Below the pieces are notes generated by a model. It worked only from the letters and a program-made list of their open reading frames with translations. It searched no databases and was not told the DNA's origin. Shown in pieces: positions 854 to 14,057 of a stretch of DNA of 14,667 nucleotides; the stretch's first letter is position 1, and the number at the start of each line of letters is the position of its first letter. The stretch lies in NCBI GenBank assembly GCA_036744635.1, contig DAIOHQ010000111.1, positions 1-14,667 on the forward strand, given 5' to 3'. This DNA comes from Tepidisphaeraceae bacterium. Its GTDB lineage: Bacteria > Planctomycetota > Phycisphaerae > Tepidisphaerales > Tepidisphaeraceae. Position numbers and translations under genes: made by a program.

Positions 854-862
854 AGATGTCGT

Positions 863-885
863 AGGGGCGGGGTTTCCCCGCCCCT
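863..885 (+). terminator. Intrinsic-terminator-like hairpin (GGGGCGGGG-TTT-CCCCGCCCC) for the plus-strand small ORF
   Basis: A perfect 9-bp GC stem (864-872 / 876-884) with a 3-nt loop, extended by an A-T pair and followed by CATTCTTC. It begins 10 nt after the stop codon at 851-853. Confidence 0.55.
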
Positions 886-905: not shown

Positions 906-928
906 AGGGGCGGGGAAACCCCGCCCCT
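906..928 (-). terminator. Intrinsic terminator for the minus-strand flotillin-like gene; it is a mirror copy of the 863-885 hairpin
   Basis: GGGGCGGGG-AAA-CCCCGCCCC (907-915 / 919-927) is extended by an A906-T928 pair. On the minus strand it is followed by CUUGUUUCG. It overlaps the stop codon at 927-929 of the convergent gene. Confidence 0.6.
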
Positions 929-3161
929 ACGATACCCGTCCCGCCGCAACCGCCTTGGCGGGAACATCCACATTCATCGAGTTCATGGACTCCATCACCT
1001 GCCGGCTCATGCGTTCGGTGAGTTCCGTTAGGGCGGGATTCTGCTTCCCATCGCCCAGCTCGAAGCCGCTCTTCTCGGCCACCATCAGGCTGATGAGCGT
1101 GCCGAGCAGGCCCTGGGCGCCATGGCCGCCGGCGCCGTCGCCTCCGCCGGTGACGAAGAGCTTTTCCGGGACGAGCGGCTGGGCGCTCTTGCTGAGATGT
1201 TCGGCCACCAGCGCCAGGGCATACAAGCGTGGATCGCCGAAGCCGCTGATCTTCTGCATCAGCACCGATGCTTCCGACAGGCCCACCTGCAACGTGCGCT
1301 GGCTTTCGCCTTTGCCGGCCAGGATGCGCTGCTCGCTTTCGGCTTTGGCCGTGACGACGGTCTGTTCGGCCGCCCGCCGCGAGCGTTCCAGATCGGCCTC
1401 GGCCATGACCACCTGCTGCTGCGCCTGTTTGCGGGCGCGGGAGAGGTCGGCGTCGCCATTGTTCTCGGCGATGCGAATCTGCACCTGCGAGTTGGTTAGC
1501 TCCGCCTGCTTGGCCGCGATTGCCTGGGCTTCGTTGAGCGCCCGCAGCTTGTCGGCGGCGACGCGCTGGCGGTCGAAGGTCTCGAGCTGCTCGATGGAAA
1601 GCTGCCGCAGGCGAAGCTGCTCGAGCAGCGTTTCAATCTTGCCGCCGGCTTCGGCGGTGTCGGGCTTGCCGATCAGCACGTCCACGCACTCGATGTCGAA
1701 ATCGAGGAAGCGGTGCTTGAGCGCCTCGCGGGCCTCAAGCTGCATGGAATCGCGCTGCTGCAGCAGTTCCAGCATGGTGCGCTTGTGGGCCACATCCCGG
1801 AAGTAGGCGCTCAGCATGGGATCGAGCGTCTGGGTGATCAGCTTCTTCACATCGCCGAAGCGCTGAATGACGCTTGGAGCTTTCATATAGTCGATATGAA
1901 CGACGACACTCAGCGGCAGCAGCGGCTCATACGCATCCTTGGTGACGATGTCGATGGATTTAAGCCCTTCATCATAGCGGTGCGACTCGGTGCGCCCGGT
2001 GATCCAGTGCAGCACGAAGTTTGTCGTCGGCACCAGCACGATCTGCCCGGCGTAGGCGTTGAACGGATATTTGCCCGGCCCCAGCGGCCTTTCCCACACC
2101 CCGCGCTCCCCGCGAGCAACCCGCTCGCCATGGCGGAAGGCATCGCCCGACAGGTCCTTGCCGATCGGCCCGTAATAGCTGATGACCACGCCGACGTAGC
2201 CAATGGGAATCAGCGTCTTGGGGATCATCTCGACGGTCGCGAACCAGCGGTTCACGAAATAGGTGCCATCGGTCAGTGGCACATACTGCCGCCCGCGCCG
2301 GCCGCCGGCCGCCAGAAACGCCTCGGGATCCTGATAGTTGTTGTGATAGTGCGGGTCGTTGGCGTCGTTCCCCACCGAAGGCGCGATGATCTCGCCGGGC
2401 GCCAGCGACGGGCCATCATGCACGGTCACGATGGCGATATTGTCCATGACCACGCCCTCTTCGCGTTCCTCGCGGGTTGGGCTGCCAATCGAGCCGACGA
2501 CGACGGGGCTGAATCCATCGATCTGCCGCAGCTCCTTCTGCCAGCTCACCACCGTTTCCAGCTCGCGCCGGCCGCCCTGGGAATCCAGCCGATAGACGGC
2601 ATCTTCACAGATCACGTTGAACAGCGCCAGGTTGATCGCATAGACGCCCTCGCGGAGGATGATGCGCTGGCGGCCCCGCTGGCCGTGGGTGTCGCGCTCG
2701 GCCTTTCCCGCTTTTCCCAGAAACGCAAAGGCATCCTGAAAATTATTGCAATCCACCACCCGGCCCAGCGTCTGGCTGGGCTCCAGCGGCTGCCCATCGC
2801 GGGCATACACATACCCGATCTTCCCCTGCGACACCGTCACCAGCGGAACCTTGTGAATCCGGTACTGCCATGGCCAATAAAAGAAATGCACGCCGCCGCG
2901 CAGCAGCCACGCCTGATACCCCGCCTCGCCGTTGATGGCGATGATCTGCCCTTCGCGCACGCTGCCGCCGCTGGACCACAGTTTTTCGATCACTCCGACG
3001 CGATTGTTGGGAATATAACGCATTCCCAGCGCCGAAAATGCCAGAATGAACAGCACAAACAGCGCGACGGCGACCTTCAGAATCGTCATGAGCCAATCGC
3101 TGCTGTCTGGCTGAGCCAAAAAGTTGGAAAAATTCCCCGATAAGATGGTGGCGAGAAACAT
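927..3161 (-). CDS. Flotillin-like SPFH/band-7 domain membrane protein (YqiK family), about 744 aa
   Basis: The ORF 927..3482 contains MFLATILSGNFSNFLAQ…LMTILKVAVALFVLFILAF…RYIPNNRVGVIEKLW (an N-terminal hydrophobic anchor followed by an SPFH core). A long Ala/Glu/Gln-rich coiled-coil flotillin C-terminus follows (…EAQAIAAKQAELTNSQVQIRIAENNGDADLSRARKQAQQQVVMAEADLERSRRAAEQ…). I chose the ATG at complement(3159..3161) because it is preceded by AAGGAG with a 6-nt spacer. The ORF-track start at 3482 and the ATG at 3182 lack an SD and add a non-homologous Pro/Arg-rich extension. Confidence 0.85.
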   Translation of the reverse strand: MFLATILSGNFSNFLAQPDSSDWLMTILKVAVALFVLFILAFSALGMRYIPNNRVGVIEKLWSSGGSVREGQIIAINGEAGYQAWLLRGGVHFFYWPWQYRIHKVPLVTVSQGKIGYVYARDGQPLEPSQTLGRVVDCNNFQDAFAFLGKAGKAERDTHGQRGRQRIILREGVYAINLALFNVICEDAVYRLDSQGGRRELETVVSWQKELRQIDGFSPVVVGSIGSPTREEREEGVVMDNIAIVTVHDGPSLAPGEIIAPSVGNDANDPHYHNNYQDPEAFLAAGGRRGRQYVPLTDGTYFVNRWFATVEMIPKTLIPIGYVGVVISYYGPIGKDLSGDAFRHGERVARGERGVWERPLGPGKYPFNAYAGQIVLVPTTNFVLHWITGRTESHRYDEGLKSIDIVTKDAYEPLLPLSVVVHIDYMKAPSVIQRFGDVKKLITQTLDPMLSAYFRDVAHKRTMLELLQQRDSMQLEAREALKHRFLDFDIECVDVLIGKPDTAEAGGKIETLLEQLRLRQLSIEQLETFDRQRVAADKLRALNEAQAIAAKQAELTNSQVQIRIAENNGDADLSRARKQAQQQVVMAEADLERSRRAAEQTVVTAKAESEQRILAGKGESQRTLQVGLSEASVLMQKISGFGDPRLYALALVAEHLSKSAQPLVPEKLFVTGGGDGAGGHGAQGLLGTLISLMVAEKSGFELGDGKQNPALTELTERMSRQVMESMNSMNVDVPAKAVAAGRVS

Positions 3162-3353
3162 GAGCTTCTCCTTAATTGTCATGACCAGCGGCCCCGGCCG
3201 CCCGCACAACGTCCCCATCATACCGTTCGCCCCTTCCCCTGCACTTACAACCCCGGCAAAATTCTCTAAGCGCGGCGCGGCGGGGCGCGGGCGGAAAGAG
3301 CGGATTTCTCGTTGCAGATTTCCTGCCTTATTTGCGCGGCATACGATTTGCCG

Positions 3354-3367
3354 ATAGTGTTCACTAT
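3354..3367. promoter_or_regulatory. 14-bp palindrome ATAGTG-TT-CACTAT abutting the -35 of the plus-strand promoter; a candidate operator
   Basis: A perfect 6+6 inverted repeat with a 2-nt spacer at 3354-3367. It lies 6 bp upstream of TTGACA (3374-3379), in the divergent intergenic region between the flotillin-like gene and the DUF2203-like gene. Confidence 0.3.
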
Positions 3368-3373
3368 GCGTGA

Positions 3374-3401
3374 TTGACACCATCGGATGCGATGTCATAA
3401 T
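3374..3401 (+). promoter_or_regulatory. Candidate sigma70 promoter TTGACA-N16-CATAAT for the DUF2203-like gene
   Basis: TTGACA at 3374-3379, a 16-nt spacer, then CATAAT at 3396-3401. It is about 80 nt upstream of the ATG at 3485. This is a near-consensus match in a GC-rich background. Confidence 0.45.
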
Positions 3402-3484
3402 CGCCGGTGGGTTGAAGATGTAGCGCATCGTCCCGTTTGTGCGAGCAGGCACCCCCGAGCCGCTCGCGAAGAAAGGCGGCATTT

Positions 3485-3982: not shown

Positions 3983-4159
3983 TGCGTAAGAAGCCACTCT
4001 GGCCGGGCACGCCATTCTTTCGCGGCTCCGATCCGTGGCTGATCGAGGGCGTCGGGAACCTGCTGGAAAGGGCATACGTTCCTGCAGGGTGATGGCGGGC
4101 TTGTGGTGGGGGGAAAAGCGGGTAAGCTTTCCGCCTCTTTACCTTTAGGAGCAAGCACG

Positions 4160-5323
4160 ATGTCTCTGATTCCTCCGCATGGCGGGCAACTGGTCAATCG
4201 GGTTCTGCAGTCGGCGGCGGCCGAAAAGGCGGCCAAAGACGCCGCTTCCCTGCCCGCACTCACCCTTACCCCCCGTGAAGCGTTTGACCTGGAGATGATC
4301 GCCATTGGCGCCTTCTCGCCGCTGACGGGATTCATGGGGCAGGCCGACTTTCAGGGGGTTTGCAGGAACATGCGGCTGGCCAGCGGCGTGGTCTGGCCGA
4401 TTCCGGTGATCCTTTGCCCGCCGGATGAAATCACGGCGAAACTGAACACCGGCGACCGGGTGGCCCTGAAGGATGACAAGGGACGGCTGCTGGGAACCAT
4501 GACCATTCAGGAGAAATATCCCCACGACAAGGCGCTGGAAATTCCCAATGTCTATCGCACCGAGGATGAGGCCCATCCGGGCGTGAAGATCGTCAAGGCG
4601 CAGGGGAACACCTGCCTGGGCGGGCCGATCGACGTGATCACGCCGACGCACGAGCCGGAGTTTTCGGATTATCGCCTGCCGCCGGCGGCGACGCGGGCGG
4701 CGTTTGAGAAGAAGGGATGGTCAACGGTTGCGGCATTTCAGACGCGCAATCCGATTCACCGCTCGCACGAATATCTGACCAAGTGCGCGCTGGAGATGAC
4801 CGATGGGCTGCTGATTCACCCGCTGGTGGGCGAGACCAAGTCCGATGACATTCCGGCCAACGTGCGCATGGACTGCTACAAGACGCTGGTGGACAACTAT
4901 TACAACAAGGAGCGCACGATGCTGAGCGTGATGCCGCTGGCGATGCGCTACGCCGGCCCGCGCGAGGCTGTCCTGCATTCGCTGATCCGCAAGAATTACG
5001 GCGTGACCCATTTCATCGTCGGGCGCGATCACGCCGGCGTGGGAACGTACTACGGCACCTACGATGCGCAGAAGATTTTCGACCAGTTCGATTTGCCGAA
5101 GGATATCGGCGTCACCATCTTGAAATTTGAGCACACCGCCTGGTGCAAGAAGTGCGAGGCGATTGTCTCCAGCAAGACCTGCCCGCATGGCCCCGAGGAC
5201 AAGATCGCCCCCAGTGGAACCAAGGTGCGAGAGACGCTGAAGGCCGGTCAGCGGCCGCCGATGGAATTCAGCCGGCCGGAGATTGCCGATATTCTGATCA
5301 AGTGGGCGCAGGGGGCGAAGTAG
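4160..5323 (+). CDS. sat: Sulfate adenylyltransferase (ATP sulfurylase), 387 aa
   Basis: The product contains QTRNPIHRSHEYLTK, HFIVGRDHAGVG and YGTYDAQ, which are hallmark motifs of homo-oligomeric ATP sulfurylase (Sat/MET3 type), and has the N-terminal PUA-like domain. I chose the ATG at 4160 because AGGAG lies 8 nt upstream. The ORF-track start at 4103 adds a non-homologous leader. Confidence 0.92.
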   Translation: MSLIPPHGGQLVNRVLQSAAAEKAAKDAASLPALTLTPREAFDLEMIAIGAFSPLTGFMGQADFQGVCRNMRLASGVVWPIPVILCPPDEITAKLNTGDRVALKDDKGRLLGTMTIQEKYPHDKALEIPNVYRTEDEAHPGVKIVKAQGNTCLGGPIDVITPTHEPEFSDYRLPPAATRAAFEKKGWSTVAAFQTRNPIHRSHEYLTKCALEMTDGLLIHPLVGETKSDDIPANVRMDCYKTLVDNYYNKERTMLSVMPLAMRYAGPREAVLHSLIRKNYGVTHFIVGRDHAGVGTYYGTYDAQKIFDQFDLPKDIGVTILKFEHTAWCKKCEAIVSSKTCPHGPEDKIAPSGTKVRETLKAGQRPPMEFSRPEIADILIKWAQGAK

Positions 5324-5382
5324 GGGCGGGGAATCCGGCGCAGTAGCAATATCGCCAGGAACCCATGGTGCCTAGATGCAAA

Positions 5383-5418
5383 ATGGCGCACCCGAGCGCA
5401 CGCGCTCGGGTGCGCCAT
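5383..5418 (-). terminator. Perfect 17-bp hairpin (ATGGCGCACCCGAGCGC / GCGCTCGGGTGCGCCAT) between the convergent sat and cytochrome genes. It is U-tailed on the minus strand
   Basis: Bases 5383-5399 pair with 5402-5418. On the minus strand the hairpin is followed by AUUUUGCAUCU, giving an intrinsic terminator for the minus-strand operon ending at 5461. On the plus strand no U-tract follows, so it may act as a structural terminator for sat only. Confidence 0.6.
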
Positions 5419-5460
5419 GCAAGGTGCTGGCGCTGGCATTGCCGCCTTCGTTCGCGGTCT

Positions 5461-8004: not shown

Positions 8005-8373
8005 TCAGGGATGGGGGGCGACGCGCGGAGGGGGCGCGAGGGTGGACTGATACTCCTTGCTGTCAAGAACGGCAATGCCGATGAAGAGCGCGACAAAGAA
8101 CGCCGCGGCGACCAGGACGACGCCGTGGAAGAGATTATCCCAACGGAGTTGCATGAAATAGACGGCCATGAGGGAAGCCTGAGCGGCGGCGATGACCAGG
8201 GCGAGCCAGAAGTTGACGATCGAGCCCATGTCAACGGAGCTGGCGGCGAGGGTGATGGCGGTCAGTGCAAGCAGGCCGGCGAAGACACCGATCAGCATCA
8301 GCGGCGAGGCGATGTGGATCTCGGCGGCGCTGGATGCTGCCTCGGAGGAGTGAGATTCAGTTGAGTTGGTCAT
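8005..8373 (-). CDS. Small 3-TM subunit of the oxidase (prokaryotic cytochrome c oxidase subunit IV-like), 122 aa
   Basis: Hydrophobic segments …IHIASPLMLIGVFAGLLALTAITLAA…NFWLALVIAAAQASLMAVYFMQLRWDNLFHGVVLVAAAFFVALFIGIAVLD resemble bacterial CoxIV/CtaF-type small subunits. Its start overlaps the subunit I/III stop in an ATGA junction (8370-8373), indicating translational coupling. Confidence 0.7.
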   Translation of the reverse strand: MTNSTESHSSEAASSAAEIHIASPLMLIGVFAGLLALTAITLAASSVDMGSIVNFWLALVIAAAQASLMAVYFMQLRWDNLFHGVVLVAAAFFVALFIGIAVLDSKEYQSTLAPPPRVAPHP

Positions 8374-11108
8374 GGTGGCTGTATCCTGGAATAAGAATGA
8401 ATCAGGTAGAGCAGCGGGAAGAGGAAGAACCAGATCAGGGTCATGAGGTGCCAGTAGAGGCCGACCAGATCGACCGGAGCGAAATAGGCGGGACTAATCT
8501 TGCGGCGGATGGCGCGAAGCATGAGCCAGATGACCAGGCCGATGCCGATTAGCACTTGCAGGGCGTGCAGGCCGGTCAGCAGGAAATAGAGGCTAAAAAA
8601 AGTGCTCACCCGGGCGCGCTCTGCTTTGGTCAAATCGAGATAGCCGAGATGGCGTCCCGCCGGCTCGGGGGCGGCCCCGGGCGGGGCGAGCCCGGGGGTG
8701 TTAAGAAAAGAGGGCTTGATCTTGGGCTCATCGGGCGTTCCGGCAAAAGGGTCCTGGTCGGCTGGGCCCTGGCGACGGGGTTCGGGGGGTTCGGCTTCTT
8801 CAGCGCCGGCCGATTTCTCGGCGGGCGTCTTGGGCTCAGCGGCGACCGGATCGATCTTGGATTCCTTGTGGTAGCGGTTTCTCGGGCCGACCCAGAGGTC
8901 GTGTTTCCACTTGTCGCGGTACTCGAATGACTTGATCCCCATGAAGCCCAAGCCGCCCAGCAGGGTGAGCCCCAGACAGAAAATCAGGCCGGCGCGGCGT
9001 CCGAGCTGGGCGCAGCGCAGGGCCAAGGCCATACAAAAGCTGCAGGCAAGGAGAACCGCGGCGGTGCCCGCCCCCTGCGTCTTGTTCAGGTACTGGTGGG
9101 CATAGGCGAAGACGGCCGGGTAATTGTGCCGGTAGGCGGCGTAGGCGCAACCGAGGCCGCCGAACATCAGCACCTCGGCGGCGATGAAAATCCACATGCC
9201 CAGCCTGCCGGCAGCATAGCCCTGCGGTTTGGTTGCAAAGGAATCGGCAAGGTCAGGCACAGGAGCCTGCGGCTCGACCGTGTCGGCGGGAAGATTGCTC
9301 GCATTCGCATGGTGTTTTCCATCCCCTCCGACCGCCCCGAGCTGGCGGACCCAACCATCTTGCGCGGAAGTAAATCTCCAGGCGCTCAGGTCATAGGGGT
9401 CGCCCAGGGATTCAGTCACCGGAAGATTCTGCGCCGGCGGGGGTGATGGGGAGAACCACTCCAGGGTATTGCCGCCCCAGGGGTTGGCCGGCGCCTTCCT
9501 CCCCCAGCGCAGAGAATGGAGCCAGCTCAGCACCACCATCACCAGGCCGACTGCCATCAGGTAGGCGCCGAGTGTGGAGATGAGCTGCAAGAGCTGGTAC
9601 TGCGGGTTGTAGGTGGCATGCCGCTCGGGCATGCCGCGGCTGCCGGCGATGAACAGGGGGAAGAATGTCCCGTTGAAGCCGACGAAGACAAGGAGGGCGG
9701 CGATCGCGCTCCATTTCTCGCTCACCATCCTGCCGGTGATCTTCGGCCACCAGTAGTACATGCCGCCCAGGAAGGCGAACAGGGTGGAGCCCGCCACCAG
9801 GTAGTGGAAGTGGGCGACGAGGAAGGAGGTGCCGATGAGATGGATGCTGGTGGCGATGGAGCCGAAGAACAGGCCGCTGAGGCTGCCGACGGTGAAGAGG
9901 GCGATGAATGCGATGGCGTAGAGCATGGGGGCCGCCAGCCGGATCGAGCCGCGGTAAAGGGTGGCGAGCCAACTGCAGATGGTGATGGCAAAGGGGATGG
10001 CGACGCTGAAGCTGAGCAGGCCGAAGATGGCATTGACCAGTCCGGAGGAGCCGCTGACGAACAGGTGCTGTCCCCATCCCAGGAAGCCGGCCAGGGCGAT
10101 GGTGAGGAAGGAGTAGGCGAGAAACGCATAGCCGAAGATGTGCTTGCGGCTGAAGGTGCAGACCAGTTCGCTGATGATTCCCATGGCCCCGAGGAGCATG
10201 ATGTAGCCGGCCGGGTGGGCGAAGAACCAGAAGAAGTGCTGGAAGAGGACCGGATCGCCGCCGAAGTTAGGGTCAAAGATGCCGACGTGCCAGAAGCGCT
10301 CGGCCGCGACGAGCAGAAGCGTTATTACCAGGACTGGGGTGGCGACGATCTGAACGATGCTGGCGCCGTACAGGCCCCAGAGGAACAGGGGCATGCGGAA
10401 CCAGGACATGCCGGGCGGGCGGAGGGTGTGGATGGAGACGACGAAATTGGCGGCGCTCAGGATGGAACTCAATGCCAGAATGGAAATGCCGAGAATCGCG
10501 AGGGTCGTGCAATCGCCGGCCTTTTCTGTGGCATAGGGGATGGAGAAGGTCCAGCCGCTGTCAAGCCCCCCCTGCCCTCCCCCCTTGAAACCGCCAGGGG
10601 GGGCGGGGAGGGTTTTGCCAAACGCAAAGTAGGCGACCCCGCTGGCCACGACATACAGGAGCACAAGTGCGCCCATGCAGTAAAGCTGGAAGCCCAGCCG
10701 GTTGATGCGGGGGAAGGCGACGTTGCGGGCGCCCAGCATCATCGGAAGGACAAAATTGCCGAGAACCGCGGGAATGCCGGGAATCATCACCAGGAAGACC
10801 ATCACCACGCCATGGAGGGTGAAAAGCTGGTTGTACAAATCCAAAGCCCGGGCGCGGGCGGCGGTGTCGGCGGAAGGGGGGATGGCGAGGCCTGGGGTGA
10901 GGAATTTGCTGCGCAGGATGATGGCCAGCAGCTCGCCGACGAACAGGAAGACGAGGATTGCGAGCATGTACATCAGGCCGATGCGCTTGTGGTCAAGCGA
11001 GAAGATCCACGAGCGGATGCCGCGAGGCTGAGTCAAGTAATTATCGCGCGCGGGCCCAGGGGGGGGCGCTGGCGGCGATAGCGAAGGTGTTGGGATGGCG
11101 GCTGGCAT
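8370..11108 (-). CDS. ctaD: Haem-copper oxidase subunit I fused to subunit III (912 aa). It has a non-canonical CuB site (WGQHLF) and lacks the D- and K-channel residues
   Basis: N-terminal motifs are …SWIFSLDHKRIG, …YNQLFTLHGVVMVF (helix II His), FWFFAHPAGY (CuB His + Tyr), VAHFHY (haem a3 / haem a His) and …FPLFIAGSRGMPERH. The C-terminal 275 aa are CoxIII-like (MWIFIAAEVLMFGG…YWHLMTLIWFFLFPLLY). GGGAG lies 9 nt before the ATG at 11108. Details of the atypical residues are given under findings. Confidence 0.9.
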   Translation of the reverse strand: MPAAIPTPSLSPPAPPPGPARDNYLTQPRGIRSWIFSLDHKRIGLMYMLAILVFLFVGELLAIILRSKFLTPGLAIPPSADTAARARALDLYNQLFTLHGVVMVFLVMIPGIPAVLGNFVLPMMLGARNVAFPRINRLGFQLYCMGALVLLYVVASGVAYFAFGKTLPAPPGGFKGGGQGGLDSGWTFSIPYATEKAGDCTTLAILGISILALSSILSAANFVVSIHTLRPPGMSWFRMPLFLWGLYGASIVQIVATPVLVITLLLVAAERFWHVGIFDPNFGGDPVLFQHFFWFFAHPAGYIMLLGAMGIISELVCTFSRKHIFGYAFLAYSFLTIALAGFLGWGQHLFVSGSSGLVNAIFGLLSFSVAIPFAITICSWLATLYRGSIRLAAPMLYAIAFIALFTVGSLSGLFFGSIATSIHLIGTSFLVAHFHYLVAGSTLFAFLGGMYYWWPKITGRMVSEKWSAIAALLVFVGFNGTFFPLFIAGSRGMPERHATYNPQYQLLQLISTLGAYLMAVGLVMVVLSWLHSLRWGRKAPANPWGGNTLEWFSPSPPPAQNLPVTESLGDPYDLSAWRFTSAQDGWVRQLGAVGGDGKHHANASNLPADTVEPQAPVPDLADSFATKPQGYAAGRLGMWIFIAAEVLMFGGLGCAYAAYRHNYPAVFAYAHQYLNKTQGAGTAAVLLACSFCMALALRCAQLGRRAGLIFCLGLTLLGGLGFMGIKSFEYRDKWKHDLWVGPRNRYHKESKIDPVAAEPKTPAEKSAGAEEAEPPEPRRQGPADQDPFAGTPDEPKIKPSFLNTPGLAPPGAAPEPAGRHLGYLDLTKAERARVSTFFSLYFLLTGLHALQVLIGIGLVIWLMLRAIRRKISPAYFAPVDLVGLYWHLMTLIWFFLFPLLYLIHSYSRIQPP

Positions 11109-12223: not shown

Positions 12224-12571
12224 TCAATCCGACGTACTCGTCGTCGGGCTCGTTGTCGGTCGTGTTGTCGGGCTCGTTGTCGGCAGCCTGCCGCCATTGG
12301 CGAGCAACAGCTTCATCGCCTCATCGATCGGGATCGCCACGGTCTGGTGCTGCCGATCCACCCATCGGTAGGAGTTGATCTTCTCCAATTGGCCGGCCCG
12401 CAGGTTCGCCAGCCAGCGGACGGGGGTATCATCCCACTTCGCAGCCGTCTCCTGGTGGACTTCCTGAAGGAACCATCCCTGGACCCCGATCACCAGCACG
12501 ATCAGGAGGAAACCGGCGACGGCGCCGATCACCAGGATGCGAGCGATATTGACTTCTTGATGCTTTGCCAT
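12224..12571 (-). CDS. Small single-TM protein with a Thr/Pro-rich C-terminal tail, about 115 aa. It may be an accessory subunit of ACIII or the oxidase
   Basis: MAKHQEVNIARILVIGAVAGFLLIVLVIGVQGWFL (one TM helix), then …WDDTPVRWLANLRAGQLEKINSYRWVDRQHQTVAIPIDEAMKLLLANGG and the tail RLPTTSPTTRPTTSPTTSTSD, which is encoded by a tandem DNA repeat. No SD is visible. The upstream extension in the ORF track overlaps the actF stop. Confidence 0.45.
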   Translation of the reverse strand: MAKHQEVNIARILVIGAVAGFLLIVLVIGVQGWFLQEVHQETAAKWDDTPVRWLANLRAGQLEKINSYRWVDRQHQTVAIPIDEAMKLLLANGGRLPTTSPTTRPTTSPTTSTSD

Positions 12572-12620: not shown

Positions 12621-14057
12621 TCACATGTTTTCGAATGCCACCGACTCCACGAGCCGGGGGTCCATTCTTGGCCGCAGGCTGTGCCGGGCGAGCAGGCGCA
12701 CAAACGCGGCCAGGAAAATCCCGCCGATGCCTACGAAGGTCACCACGTCCAGAAGGCCGAAGTACGCCTTGCCATCGAGTTCGGGAACGATAAGCCAGTA
12801 GAGGTCGATCCAATGGAACACCAGCAGCCAAACCGCCCAAAACGCCAGCGCCGTCTTGCGGCGCTTGACGTGGCGGGAGAGGAGCCCGGCAAAGGGGATC
12901 AGCAGATTGCCAAAGAGCAGGGCGATGGCGACGCCGCTCCAGACATTGGCGCCGCCGTGGGCGGTGCTGGCCCCGCGCCGGACCAGCCAGCCGGTTTCTT
13001 CCGGGATGCTGGCGTACCAGATGAGCATGTACTGGCTGAAGGCGATGTAGCCCCAGAAGAAGACAAAGCCGAAGAGCCATTTGCCCAGGTCATGGTAATG
13101 CTCGTTGTTGACGCTGCGTTGCAGGTATCCCCAGTGCTGCATGAGCATCAGGATCAGGATAAGCGTGGCCAAGCCGCTAACCACCGAGCCGGCAAAGAGG
13201 TAAACGCCGAAGATGGTGCTGTACCAGTGCGGGTCGAGCGACATGACCAGGTCAAAGACAGCAAAGGTGAGCGTCAGCCCGAGCACAATGAGCGCAGGGG
13301 CGCTGAGCGTCTGCATGCGCATGGTGGCGGCGGCGGCGGCGGAGGGGGAGCCGCTGATGTCCTGCTTCCAGGATTGCCGCCAGTACCAGTGCCCCATCAG
13401 TGACCAGACCACGAAATAGCACAGGATGCGGGCGATAAAGAAATGGCCGTTGAGCCAGGAGCGCTTGGACAGGGTCAGCTCATCGGGCGGCTGCACGCCA
13501 TGGGCGCTGGGATGCTCCTCGAGTTGTGGGGCGGCGGAAAAGGGGTCAGACCCCGTTGTGCGCAGCACCCTTGGGGCCGTTCCGGCAACGGGGTCTGACC
13601 CCTTTTCCGCCCCCTTTTCCGCCCCTGACCCCTTTTCCGCCCCGAGCTGGTGTGGAATGGGTTGGGCCCCCTGGGCCCAGCGATACAGATCGCCGTGGCC
13701 AAGCGCCACCGAAATCAGGATCGGCGCCGACAAAGCCAGCAGGATCGGCATGGTTGCCCCCAGCGCCTCGGCCACCCGGCGCACGCTGACGCTCCAACCG
13801 GCGCGGGTCAGGTGCTGGATCAGCACGAAGAAGATCGCTCCGAGGGCGATGGTCAGGAAGAAACAGAAGCTGACCAGATAGGTGAAAAAGAAGCGGCGGA
13901 AGCTGGGATCGATGACATAGCCCAGGAGCAGGGAGGCGAGCAGGCCAACGATGCCGGCCACGCTGGCCGTGCGGTAGGCGGGCCAGGCGCTGGCCGCCAG
14001 GTTGAGCCTCTCGCGCGGGGCAGGGGGGGTCTCGGATTGTTCTGCGTGTGCTGACAA
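12621..14057 (-). CDS. actF: Alternative Complex III membrane subunit ActF-like (NrfD/PsrC-family polytopic quinol-binding subunit), about 478 aa
   Basis: It has about 10 predicted TM helices (…VAGIVGLLASLLLGYVI, FFFTYLVSFCFFLTIALGAIFFVLI, …HWYSTIFGVYLFAGSVVSGLATLILI, …LFGFVFFWGYIAFSQYMLIWYASIPEETGW…). It immediately follows actE, as in actABCDEF operons. The ORF-track start at 14312 overlaps actE by 222 nt. The first in-frame start after the actE stop is the TTG at complement(14055..14057), preceded by a G-rich stretch with GGAG. The start is uncertain, and the family call is from memory of ActC/ActF features. Confidence 0.62.
   Translation of the reverse strand: MSAHAEQSETPPAPRERLNLAASAWPAYRTASVAGIVGLLASLLLGYVIDPSFRRFFFTYLVSFCFFLTIALGAIFFVLIQHLTRAGWSVSVRRVAEALGATMPILLALSAPILISVALGHGDLYRWAQGAQPIPHQLGAEKGSGAEKGAEKGSDPVAGTAPRVLRTTGSDPFSAAPQLEEHPSAHGVQPPDELTLSKRSWLNGHFFIARILCYFVVWSLMGHWYWRQSWKQDISGSPSAAAAATMRMQTLSAPALIVLGLTLTFAVFDLVMSLDPHWYSTIFGVYLFAGSVVSGLATLILILMLMQHWGYLQRSVNNEHYHDLGKWLFGFVFFWGYIAFSQYMLIWYASIPEETGWLVRRGASTAHGGANVWSGVAIALLFGNLLIPFAGLLSRHVKRRKTALAFWAVWLLVFHWIDLYWLIVPELDGKAYFGLLDVVTFVGIGGIFLAAFVRLLARHSLRPRMDPRLVESVAFENM
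13533..13641. repeat. In-frame repeat cassette inside actF: a 26-bp perfect inverted repeat (13533-13558 / 13586-13611) plus 3 tandem copies of CCCTTTTCCGCC
   Basis: GCGGAAAAGGGGTCAGACCCCGTTG… and …CAACGGGGTCTGACCCCTTTTCCGC are exact reverse complements separated by 27 bp. They are followed by …CCCCTTTTCCGCC CCCTTTTCCGCC CCTGACCCCTTTTCCGCC. On the coding (minus) strand this encodes the low-complexity loop …GAEKGSGAEKGAEKGSDPVAGTAPRVLRTTGSDPFS…. Confidence 0.6.

Follow-up and report, generated by a model that had tools for sequence, protein, structure and literature searches.

A probable member of a dispersed, REP-like hairpin family in the reading frame of actF from a Tepidisphaeraceae bacterium

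The Rickettsia palindromic elements (RPEs), reportedly described by Ogata et al. in 2000, reside in obligate intracellular Alphaproteobacteria, and we know of no transposase that would be associated with them. Transposition by Y1 enzymes, such as those of the IS200/IS605 group and the tyrosine transposases associated with repetitive extragenic palindromes (REPs), the REP-associated tyrosine transposases (RAYTs), proceeds without duplication of the target site. The residence of palindromic repeats in frame is established for RPEs and for some REPs of the GTAG/CGTC type (PMC3733652), with latter, either as single units or as dimers, being located wholly inside open reading frames (ORFs), including those of DNA repair and tRNA-related genes, where they encode short extra segments (Di Nocera et al., 2013, PMC3733652). 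REP doublets are established as mobile unit (REPINs), together with their Y1 transposases (Bertels and Rainey, 2011, PMC3116915; PMC5581495). In TIRtrons, RAYT-like TIRYT genes are flanked by inverted repeats sharing the motif GGGGWSAS, which are sometimes amplified to dispersed families and arranged as dimers, with R. baltica being named among the repeat-rich hosts (Di Nocera et al., 2013, PMC3733652). TIRYTs were equated with subclass 2.1 of TnpA-Y1 and the motif was defined as GGGG[AT][CG]A[CG] (Quentin et al., 2018, PMC6006769). Here we describe a hairpin-forming repeat located in frame within the gene actF of a Tepidisphaeraceae bacterium, on a stretch of 14,667 nt (contig DAIOHQ010000111.1) which we refer to as the window.

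We classify the actF element as a sequence of the REPIN or terminal inverted repeat (TIR) type and not as a classical MITE (a miniature inverted-repeat transposable element), with a behavior that resembles RPEs. We assign a probability of about 0.7 to the reading that positions 13530-13643 belong to a dispersed family of hairpins, of the type of REP/REPIN sequences or 'TIR-repeats', which would spread by Y1 transposition. The features shared with REPINs are the organization into two inverted palindromic units connected by a short spacer to form a single long hairpin, the membership in a family that is dispersed and, in relatives, multi-copy, and the lack of a target duplication. Differences concern the absence of a GTAG/CGTC foot, the core GGGGTCWGACCCC, the conserved apical module of 27 nt and the lineage-specific outer stems of the form found in Planctomycetota, the large share of copies that are intragenic, and transposases that score just below the NCBIfam cut-off for RAYTs. 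As in REP-RAYT systems, to the extent that the work of Nunvar and Ton-Hoang is represented in a later publication (cited in PMC6006769), a single-copy Y1/HUH gene is flanked by the same units, which in our data is the case at the loci L026 and L033. A resemblance to TIRtrons is found in the match of GGGGWSAS to the start of the core (GGGGTCAG) (PMC3733652, PMC6006769) and in Y1 genes of about 230-245 residues with a C-terminal extension, bracketed by inverted copies, as shown in lineages other than the one studied here. The respective papers report short TIRs beside the transposase and moderately abundant families, whereas a composite hairpin with an apical module and the in-frame residence in housekeeping genes are not described therein (PMC3733652, PMC6006769). 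Like RPEs, the family is found in frame in many unrelated, apparently functional genes, to which it adds a surface or loop segment, and also in intergenic DNA. Its host in the window belongs to the free-living Planctomycetota, in contrast to the intracellular hosts of RPEs, and RPEs are longer than its hairpin unit of about 75-85 nt. As far as tested, which comprised a search of Rfam with nothing above threshold for the actF element, the sequences are unrelated. Compared to intragenic GTAG/CGTC REPs, the element belongs to a different repeat super-family, and the GTAG doublet that is present in the window itself (859-932) is located at a gene end, where it supplies a stop codon only.

The composite hairpin in actF and its empty site

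The features of the locus, all on the minus strand, are as follows:

12621..14057: host gene actF, encoding subunit F of alternative complex III (478 residues), as assigned from homology to entries of the PDB and gene order
13530..13614: composite hairpin, a REPIN-like doublet of two inverted arms and a 27-nt apical module, defined by repeats, shuffles and folding; the strand carrying GAAAAGGGGTCAGACCCC...GGCCCNNNGGGTGC is the sense strand of actF
13586..13614: 5' arm (sense) with outer stem GGCGG, AAAA, the core GGGGTCAGACCCC (complement of 13590-13602) and inner stem GTTG
13559..13585: apical module CCGGAACGGCCC-CAA-GGGTGCTGCGCA, a mini-hairpin pairing GCCC with GGGT around a variable triloop
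13530..13558: 3' arm (sense) with inner stem CAAC, the core GGGGTCTGACCCC (complement of 13542-13554), TTTT and CCGCC
13607..13643: tandem units that repeat part of the outer arm, in sense GGGGCGGAAAAGGGGTCAG and GGGCGGAAAAGG, encoding GAEKG repeats
13533..13643 (111 nt): translated insert of 37 codons, GAEKGSGAEKGAEKGSDPVAGTAPRVLRTTGSDPFSA, constituting residues 139-175 of ActF

The arms of the inverted repeat, 13530-13558 and 13586-13614, are each 29 nt long, with 97% complementarity and a spacing of 27 nt as obtained from a repeat search. Within them, the inner 26 nt are perfectly complementary (13533-13558, GGCGGAAAAGGGGTCAGACCCCGTTG, versus 13586-13611), which confirms the inverted repeat of the preliminary description of this DNA. 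Each arm holds the near-palindromic core GAAAAGGGGTCWGACCCCTTTTC, and the cores GGGGTCAG and GGGGTCTG fit GGGGWSAS on both arms. A 23-mer of the arm is found in the window solely as the two arms and in none of 200 dinucleotide-preserving shuffles. The tandem units that had been noticed after the hairpin consist of 2.2 copies of CCCCTTTTCCGC at 13599-13625 (100% matches, Tandem Repeats Finder) and of three 19-nt copies starting at 13595, 13607 and 13625, which were identified in the repeat search as partial repeats of the outer arm and which extend to 13643. For the minus strand of 13520-13660, RNA folding predicts an energy of -83.3 kcal/mol (z = -5.7), with none of 200 shuffles being equally stable. 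The best match of the covariance model R1 is 13530..13614 of the window (92.4 bits, E = 5e-24), although this match is partly by construction as the window copy is among the 42 family copies from which R1 was built. A metagenome contig from JGI (L127) is identical to the window across all of its 2482 nt, the element included, but possibly originates from the same assembly and may not be independent.

Judged from homology and gene order, the host gene is ActF of alternative complex III. Its best PDB match is 6f0k_F, annotated as 'ActF' (E = 5.6e-78), followed by 8k9e_F, 6lod_F and 6btm_F, while neither Pfam nor NCBIfam returned a model for the protein. Named homologues are annotated as 'quinol:cytochrome c oxidoreductase' of Tepidisphaeraceae, Fontivita and Humisphaera, which identifies the host as a planctomycete resembling Phycisphaerae. 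In the window, the minus strand contains cytochrome c, ActF, an ORF of 159 residues, CoxB and a CoxA/CoxC fusion, compared to the order ActB-NrfD/ActC-ActD-cytochrome c-ActF-small ORF-CoxB-CoxA-CoxC on contigs of orthologues. Translation probably starts at a TTG at 14057, which is preceded by GGAG and aligns with the Met of orthologues. As previously proposed, the element is located in frame in this coding region: the minus-strand ORF is continuous across it and its translation includes QLGAEKGSGAEKGAEKGSDPVAGTAPRVLRTTGSDPFSAAPQ, with the GAEKG-type insert of 37 residues being rich in Gly, Ser, Pro and Lys.

The alignment of orthologues that the preliminary description had suggested reveals an empty site. 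The insert is absent from the three closest ActF orthologues (P0002-P0004, 72-77% identity, on four contigs), and the DNA alignment with these contigs (L121, L122, L125, L126) is clean on both sides, with 87 nt (29 codons) missing from the contigs where the window has the hairpin and a further, separate difference of 9 nt upstream. No target-site duplication is visible at actF, as the flanks CACACCAGCTCGG and GCCCCACAACTCGAGG do not repeat one another and each has a single counterpart in the empty orthologue sites. The assumption that the insertion was tolerated in a loop agrees with structural data. Residues 131-192 of the protein correspond to only about 11 residues in the solved ActF chain of R. 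marinus, the length of the region varies between 0 and about 60 residues among homologues, and hydropathy places the insert after the third hydrophobic helix. In an AlphaFold model based on the orthologue alignment, the helical core is confident (predicted template modelling score, pTM, of 0.80), whereas residues 144-190, which encompass the insert (150-186 in model numbering), show a predicted local distance difference test score (pLDDT) of less than 50 and are devoid of secondary structure. It is thus predicted that the insert is disordered and belongs to a loop that follows the third transmembrane helix and differs in length among homologues. The idea that the partial arm repeats would have restored the frame after a +1 insertion of the hairpin was dropped, as the boundaries of the element cannot be fixed in the variable loop.

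Beyond the insert, actF contains a second small length change, a (GGC)x5.7 run at 13326-13342 encoding poly-Ala in SGSPSAAAAATMRMQ, where the closest orthologues are four residues shorter.

A dispersed hairpin family with copies in other genes

A search for other copies, as the preliminary description had proposed, recovered the arm 18-mer GAAAAGGGGTCAGACCCC at at least 120 loci of a collection containing one genome per species, in addition to 50 composite hairpins in metagenomes. The matches listed for the 18-mer stem from Planctomycetota, Acidobacteriota, Pseudomonadota, Actinomycetota, Bacillota, Spirochaetota, Myxococcota, Desulfobacterota and Patescibacteria and from one archaeal metagenome-assembled genome (MAG). 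The core GGGGTCWGACCCC is present in multiple copies in at least nine bacterial phyla, often at several loci per genome and often in inverted pairs, and six loci of Planctomycetota (L012, L072, L077, L078, L104, L111) share the spacer of the window as well as the arms. We defined a family pattern comprising the arm and the apical mini-hairpin, GGTCAGACCCC-N9-14-GGCCCNNNGGGTGC, which returned 50 metagenome loci, with pattern matches numbering 59 in all. After removal of duplicate contigs and of two armless false positives (L146, L168), 42 unique full hairpins were aligned (A2), with about 40 distinct copies from metagenomes and Planctomycetota carrying the same arms and apical module. One subfamily is found on eight contigs of the sample Ga0206872, and two contigs each stem from Stieleria sedimenti and from a Pirellulaceae MAG, so that relatives show several dispersed copies.

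The first half of the consensus is composed of a lineage-specific outer stem, GAAAAGGGGTCAGACCCC, a variable inner stem of 4-5 nt and GCCGGAACGGCCC-NNN-GGGTGCTKCGCAC, which in the second half is followed by the inner-stem complement, GGGGTCTGACCCCTTTTC and the outer-stem complement. Columns that were set by the search pattern could not vary in the matches, but the pattern did not impose the 3' arm and the columns of GCCGGAAC and TKCGCAC, which are nevertheless conserved. Some subfamilies contain long outer stems, such as TAAGAGCCTATCC.../...GGATAGGCTCTTA in the eight contigs of Ga0206872. Partial arm duplications are also found at L072, L111, L145, L156, L157 and L178, and whole or partial tandem units at L149/L165 and L161. 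Because such duplications recur in other copies, the suggestion that the loop is a hotspot for expansion and contraction is plausible.

The stem shows covariation. In the 42-copy alignment, RNAalifold identifies 31 pairs, 10 with compensated double changes, and 97.9% of the cells of the consensus structure are paired. Doubly compensated cells number 124, compared to 38 +/- 4.6 in column shuffles (reached in 0/500) and to 11-48 in controls where the partners were slid by 1-3 columns. Most of the covariation links columns 11-14 to 87-90 (outer stem) and columns 32-36 to 65-69 (inner stem), where the pair GTTG/CAAC of the window is replaced by AATTG/CAATT, GATTG/CAATC or AAAAA/TTTTT in other copies. 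The hairpin is maintained through compensated changes. An excess of G.T over A.C wobble cells (19 versus 3) provides a weak hint that folding takes place in one strand in particular, be it as single-stranded DNA or as RNA. In Rfam, a search of 13300-13900 at permissive E-value only returned sub-threshold matches to eukaryotic microRNA precursors, which are generic long hairpins. Taken together, we consider it very probable that 13530-13643 of the window is a copy of this family that has inserted into the ActF loop.

Related sequences extend beyond this pattern. A composite family in Gemmataceae combines the same core with another outer module, GAGAGGCTRTCC-GAAAAGGGGTCAGACCCC, and a MAG of Sandaracinaceae and an uncultured bacterium carry GAAAAGGGGTCAGACCCCTTTTTCAAAGGGTTAA with this core. 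The loci of these other composite families are L014, L090, L094 and L117 in Gemmataceae and Planctomycetota MAGs, and L002, L039, L050, L069 and L097. Several GGGTCWGACCC cores are also found on contigs classified as viral in IMG/VR (six on L200 and nine on L207; also L198, L202, L203 and L205). No RAYT-like gene was found on the core-bearing viral contigs, which may represent prophage regions or DNA of hosts that was misclassified. The possibility that the core is a generic terminator was rejected, as a scan of viral contigs for GAAAAGGGG-N5-CCCCTTTTC returned 16 ordinary terminator hairpins, none of which contains a TCAGA/TCTGA loop.

We also inspected the family copies for long stop-free frames, which were then tested against Pfam, and find that relatives of the actF repeat are located in frame in other genes, including essential ones:

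GatB_N: L145, L174 and L183, three organisms sharing one site; the Pfam domain spans the element
Pkinase: L191, element between the catalytic loop and DFG; the Pfam domain spans the element
Pkinase, NERD-kinase: L169 (L157 is near-identical); the kinase match stops just before the element
Radical_SAM/LipA-like: L176; the Pfam domain spans the element
Peptidase_M3: L172; the Pfam domain spans the element
Y1_Tnp: L186; the Pfam domain spans the element

Additional copies are found between or after domains in a glycosyltransferase (L184), an HlyD protein (L154) and a large kinase (L161). With ActF counted, about 12 of the approximately 40 distinct loci (roughly 30%) are in frame in genuine genes. 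These intragenic copies are found in both orientations and in several frames and encode at least five different peptides, such as EKGSDP.AGTA.RVLRT.GSDPF, GKGVRP.LCEAPEGPFRQ.GSDPF and KKGSDP.CAQHP.GRSGKRGLTPF; as the peptides differ among copies, no peptide appears to be under selection. The sequence is somewhat more compatible with ORFs than shuffles of equal composition, with 3.69 versus 2.64 of six frames being free of stop codons. Where the organisms share the GatB site, their copies of the element show 96-99% identity, whereas flanking codons are 82-87% identical overall and 67-76% at third positions. The DNA of the palindrome thus stays near-constant while the host gene drifts, which could result from selection, from conversion by other copies or from repeated insertion into a hotspot.

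The GatB protein of L183 (2771-4558, minus strand) contains an extra insert of about 22 residues within PGESLADRPHPNRLRAPTEGWSGEGTVS, upstream of the element, which is absent from GatB of L145 and L174 and may be another repeat-derived segment.

The putative transposase and competing explanations

Candidates for an enzyme that would move the family were found by tblastn with the interrupted ORF of L186 against all fetched loci. Full-length homologues with 27-33% identity are present in four of the 120 core loci (877 kb):

L026, Desulfobotulus: RAYT-like Y1 gene, cores at 2320 and 3048/3079 around the ORF 2326-3018
L033, Saccharibacteria: RAYT-like Y1 gene, cores at 282 and 1015 around the ORF 288-977
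L045, Ectothiorhodospiraceae: RAYT-like Y1 gene, core on one side at less than 40 nt
L074, Pseudohongiellaceae: RAYT-like Y1 gene, core on one side at less than 40 nt

In all four cases, a core is located within 40 nt of the gene, which at an expectation of about 0.2 by our own estimate is far above chance for 877 kb and a gene that normally occurs once per genome. In L026 and L033, inverted cores bracket the gene, with the stop codon residing inside one core, where ...KGV* is encoded by AAAGGGGTCTGA. The four proteins align in their HUH (NHVH/NHWH) and RYIE.NP.RA motifs, and extend beyond the Y1 domain by about 100 residues with a basic RGRPRK tail. Together with L186, they pass Pfam Y1_Tnp, and their sole NCBIfam match is NF047646, 'REP-associated tyrosine transposase' (64-73 bits), which is also the best match of the interrupted ORF of L186 (45 bits), with a weaker IS200 match below. 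The absence of a target duplication at actF fits Y1 transposition. On these grounds, we slightly favor a RAYT/TIRYT-type enzyme as the agent moving the family, which for the lineage of the window would have to be extrapolated from other phyla. In L186, the RAYT-like Y1 gene (2015-2764, plus strand) itself harbors an in-frame element at 2279-2376, which forms a 23-residue insert between the HUH and Tyr motifs, while its uninterrupted orthologues (P0122-P0131) contain 220-235 residues. A second tblastn candidate for an interrupted RAYT, L164, was rejected as its translations lack Y1 motifs.

In the mechanism that we propose, a RAYT/TIRYT-type Y1 (HUH) tyrosine transposase would recognize the folded single strand and insert it without target duplication, and within genes only those copies would survive that, by their length and frame, leave the host protein functional. 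Partial arm duplications might then arise by slippage or template switching at the hairpin, or by abortive or nested insertion. The mRNA hairpin of -83 kcal/mol would probably have at most a modulating effect, for example by ribosome pausing, and the insert peptide itself is presumed to be devoid of selected function.

Several observations weigh against such spread by Y1 transposition. All RAYT-like proteins described here miss the equivalog cut-off of NF047646 (80 bits). The helix-turn-helix (HTH)-like domain expected for TIRYT enzymes, with similarity to Bac_DnaA_C, HTH_23 or HTH_28, was not detected in the C-terminal extensions, where Pfam hmmscan at E <= 1 detects only Y1_Tnp, and no transposase is tied to the lineage of the window, which in its 14.7 kb contains a single family copy and no transposase gene. 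The core-adjacent RAYT-like genes all stem from phyla other than that of the window, and the Y1 orthologues of Phycisphaerae (L194-L197), which are single-copy and syntenic, are not flanked by the core. The arms (GGCGGAAAAGGGGTCAGACCCCGTTG) lack the GTAG foot of RAYT-type REPs as well as a CGTC tag. The exact boundaries of the insertion are uncertain, as the loop is poorly conserved, and the high conservation of the GatB copies may be due to a function or to gene conversion instead of transposition. The mobility of the actF element is an inference. In L194, L195, L197 and the upstream flank of L186, we find a common FlgM-response regulator-hemerythrin-Y1_Tnp-TPR neighborhood, similar to domesticated RAYTs.

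In weighing alternatives, we have first to consider the nature of the mobile element, which the preliminary description had left as either a MITE or a REP-like insertion, with the latter agreeing better with the data. A classical MITE would be a deletion derivative of an insertion sequence (IS) with DDE transposase that is mobilized in trans via its terminal inverted repeats and generates a target-site duplication. The long inverted termini, the small size of 85-114 nt and the dispersed family would all suit such an element, and bacterial MITEs such as Correia/NEMIS, RUP and Nezha are equally small and non-autonomous with inverted termini, form hairpins in transcripts and are occasionally located in frame within genes (PMC10969869). 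MITEs originate from DDE-type IS and generate target-site duplications, neither of which was noted for the actF element, where both flanks are single-copy and present in empty orthologues. Moreover, the GGGGWSAS-containing arms are self-palindromic and also occur singly and variously paired across phyla, as is the case for REPs, the sole transposase adjoining the core is a RAYT-like Y1/HUH enzyme, and no IS with matching ends was noticed in about 1.5 Mb of fetched loci, in which no systematic search for IS was made. A MITE is thus distinctly unlikely. A structured nucleic acid under selection in place would be more than selfish DNA, for instance a site bound by protein or DNA, or an mRNA hairpin located between the act and cox parts of the operon that tunes how well the message is translated or how stable it is. 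Such a role is compatible with a mobile origin and would account for the compensated stem changes, the constancy of the GatB-site copy despite diverged synonymous sites, the wobble asymmetry and the very stable fold. Still, copies in both orientations and in unrelated genes do not point to a common role of a sense-strand RNA, the closest ActF orthologues work without the insert, no Rfam family scores above threshold, and conservation of the hairpin is equally expected from a transposase or gene conversion, and we thus regard this explanation as unlikely.

The low complexity and repetitive nature of the encoded peptide might suggest that the palindrome is a coincidence of selection for a GAEKG/GSDP repeat combined with codon bias. 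As the preliminary description had anticipated, selection on the protein does not explain it: the same DNA is found in non-coding sites and in at least five frames and orientations with unrelated peptides, orthologues lack the insert in DNA and protein, none of 200 shuffles reproduces the arms and third codon positions inside the element are conserved. We consider a coincidence to be refuted by the family data, with a negligible residual probability. An assembly artefact, in form of a chimeric or collapsed repeat or a fold-back, has to be considered in a metagenome, where palindromes and tandem repeats are error-prone and the sole other record (L127) possibly belongs to the same assembly. It is very improbable in light of the intact frame with conserved ActF sequence on either side, and of dozens of independent assemblies, as well as genomes of isolates such as Stieleria sedimenti, in which this architecture recurs together with its partial arm duplications.

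The reading of the actF element as copy of a dispersed REP/REPIN- or TIR-repeat-type family implies that such a repeat can reside in the reading frame of a core respiratory gene of a free-living bacterium, with relatives being located in frame in at least seven other gene families. In protein databases, these repeats give rise to 'loops' of low complexity that are spurious and to odd peptides such as EKGSDPF and CEAPEGPFRQ, and in alignments and structure models they inflate the length of loops. The family provides a tractable case to study how hairpins enter genes without destroying them, how repeat DNA stays near-invariant while the host gene drifts, and whether TIRYT-type Y1 transposases drive the colonization of genes, with the core common to at least nine bacterial phyla offering a concrete substrate sequence for the biochemistry of TIRYT-type enzymes. 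A full-text literature search with the DNA of the core and with the peptides that it encodes returned no relevant publication, and the composite hairpin of Planctomycetota with its conserved apical module, the frequency of in-frame residence in housekeeping genes and the exact preservation of a core of 18-23 nt in at least nine bacterial phyla appear undescribed. A more speculative proposal, which we regard as possible but rather doubtful, combines these observations: GGGGTCWGACCCC would define an ancient, cross-phylum class of Y1-linked repeats, whose form of about 80 nt in Planctomycetota colonizes housekeeping genes (ActF, GatB, LipA-like, kinases and a RAYT-like gene) and persists through speciation, with its DNA being actively maintained. 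If true, this would imply either a host function of intragenic hairpins or their continuous conversion or re-insertion at fixed sites, and the family would be a free-living, phylum-wide counterpart of RPEs with an identifiable enzyme.

Further repeats and neighboring genes in the window

A second palindromic doublet, which is of the GTAG-tagged REP type and differs from the family of the actF element, is located at 859-932. It contains exact inverted copies of GTAGGGGCGGGGTTTCCCCGCCCC at 861-884 (plus strand) and 907-930 (minus strand), each of which is self-complementary, and an ORF of 851 residues encoding an SPFH/Band_7 protein (927-3482, minus strand) terminates at the TAG of the doublet (927-929, minus strand). 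A half-unit of this GTAG repeat, GTAGGGGCGGGG, at 5320-5331 similarly contributes the TAG at which the gene for sulfate adenylyltransferase (4103-5323, plus strand) ends. With the doublet and the actF element, two or more families of the REP type are therefore present in the source genome, and a RAYT-type enzyme is likely to reside in it on these independent grounds.

The sequence TGGCGCACCCGAGCGC-ACG-GCGCTCGGGTGCGCCA (5384-5420), which is located downstream of the same gene at a distance of about 60 nt, is palindromic with near perfection and may be a terminator. A long inverted repeat, GGGTGCCACAGGTCG...CGACCTGTGGCACCC, at 436-522 shows internal pairing and a weak match of 14 bits to the hairpin model. 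Among the genes neighboring actF, the ORF at 8370-11108 (minus strand, 912 residues) fuses COX1 (residues 42-517) to a COX3-like C-terminus (residues 835-902), whereas CoxA and CoxC are separate genes on the nearest orthologue contigs. Finally, the 159-residue ORF between actF and coxB ends at its C-terminus in a 12-nt tandem repeat of 3.9 copies (CTCGTTGTCGGG, 12237-12283), which on the minus strand encodes PDNE-like repeats.

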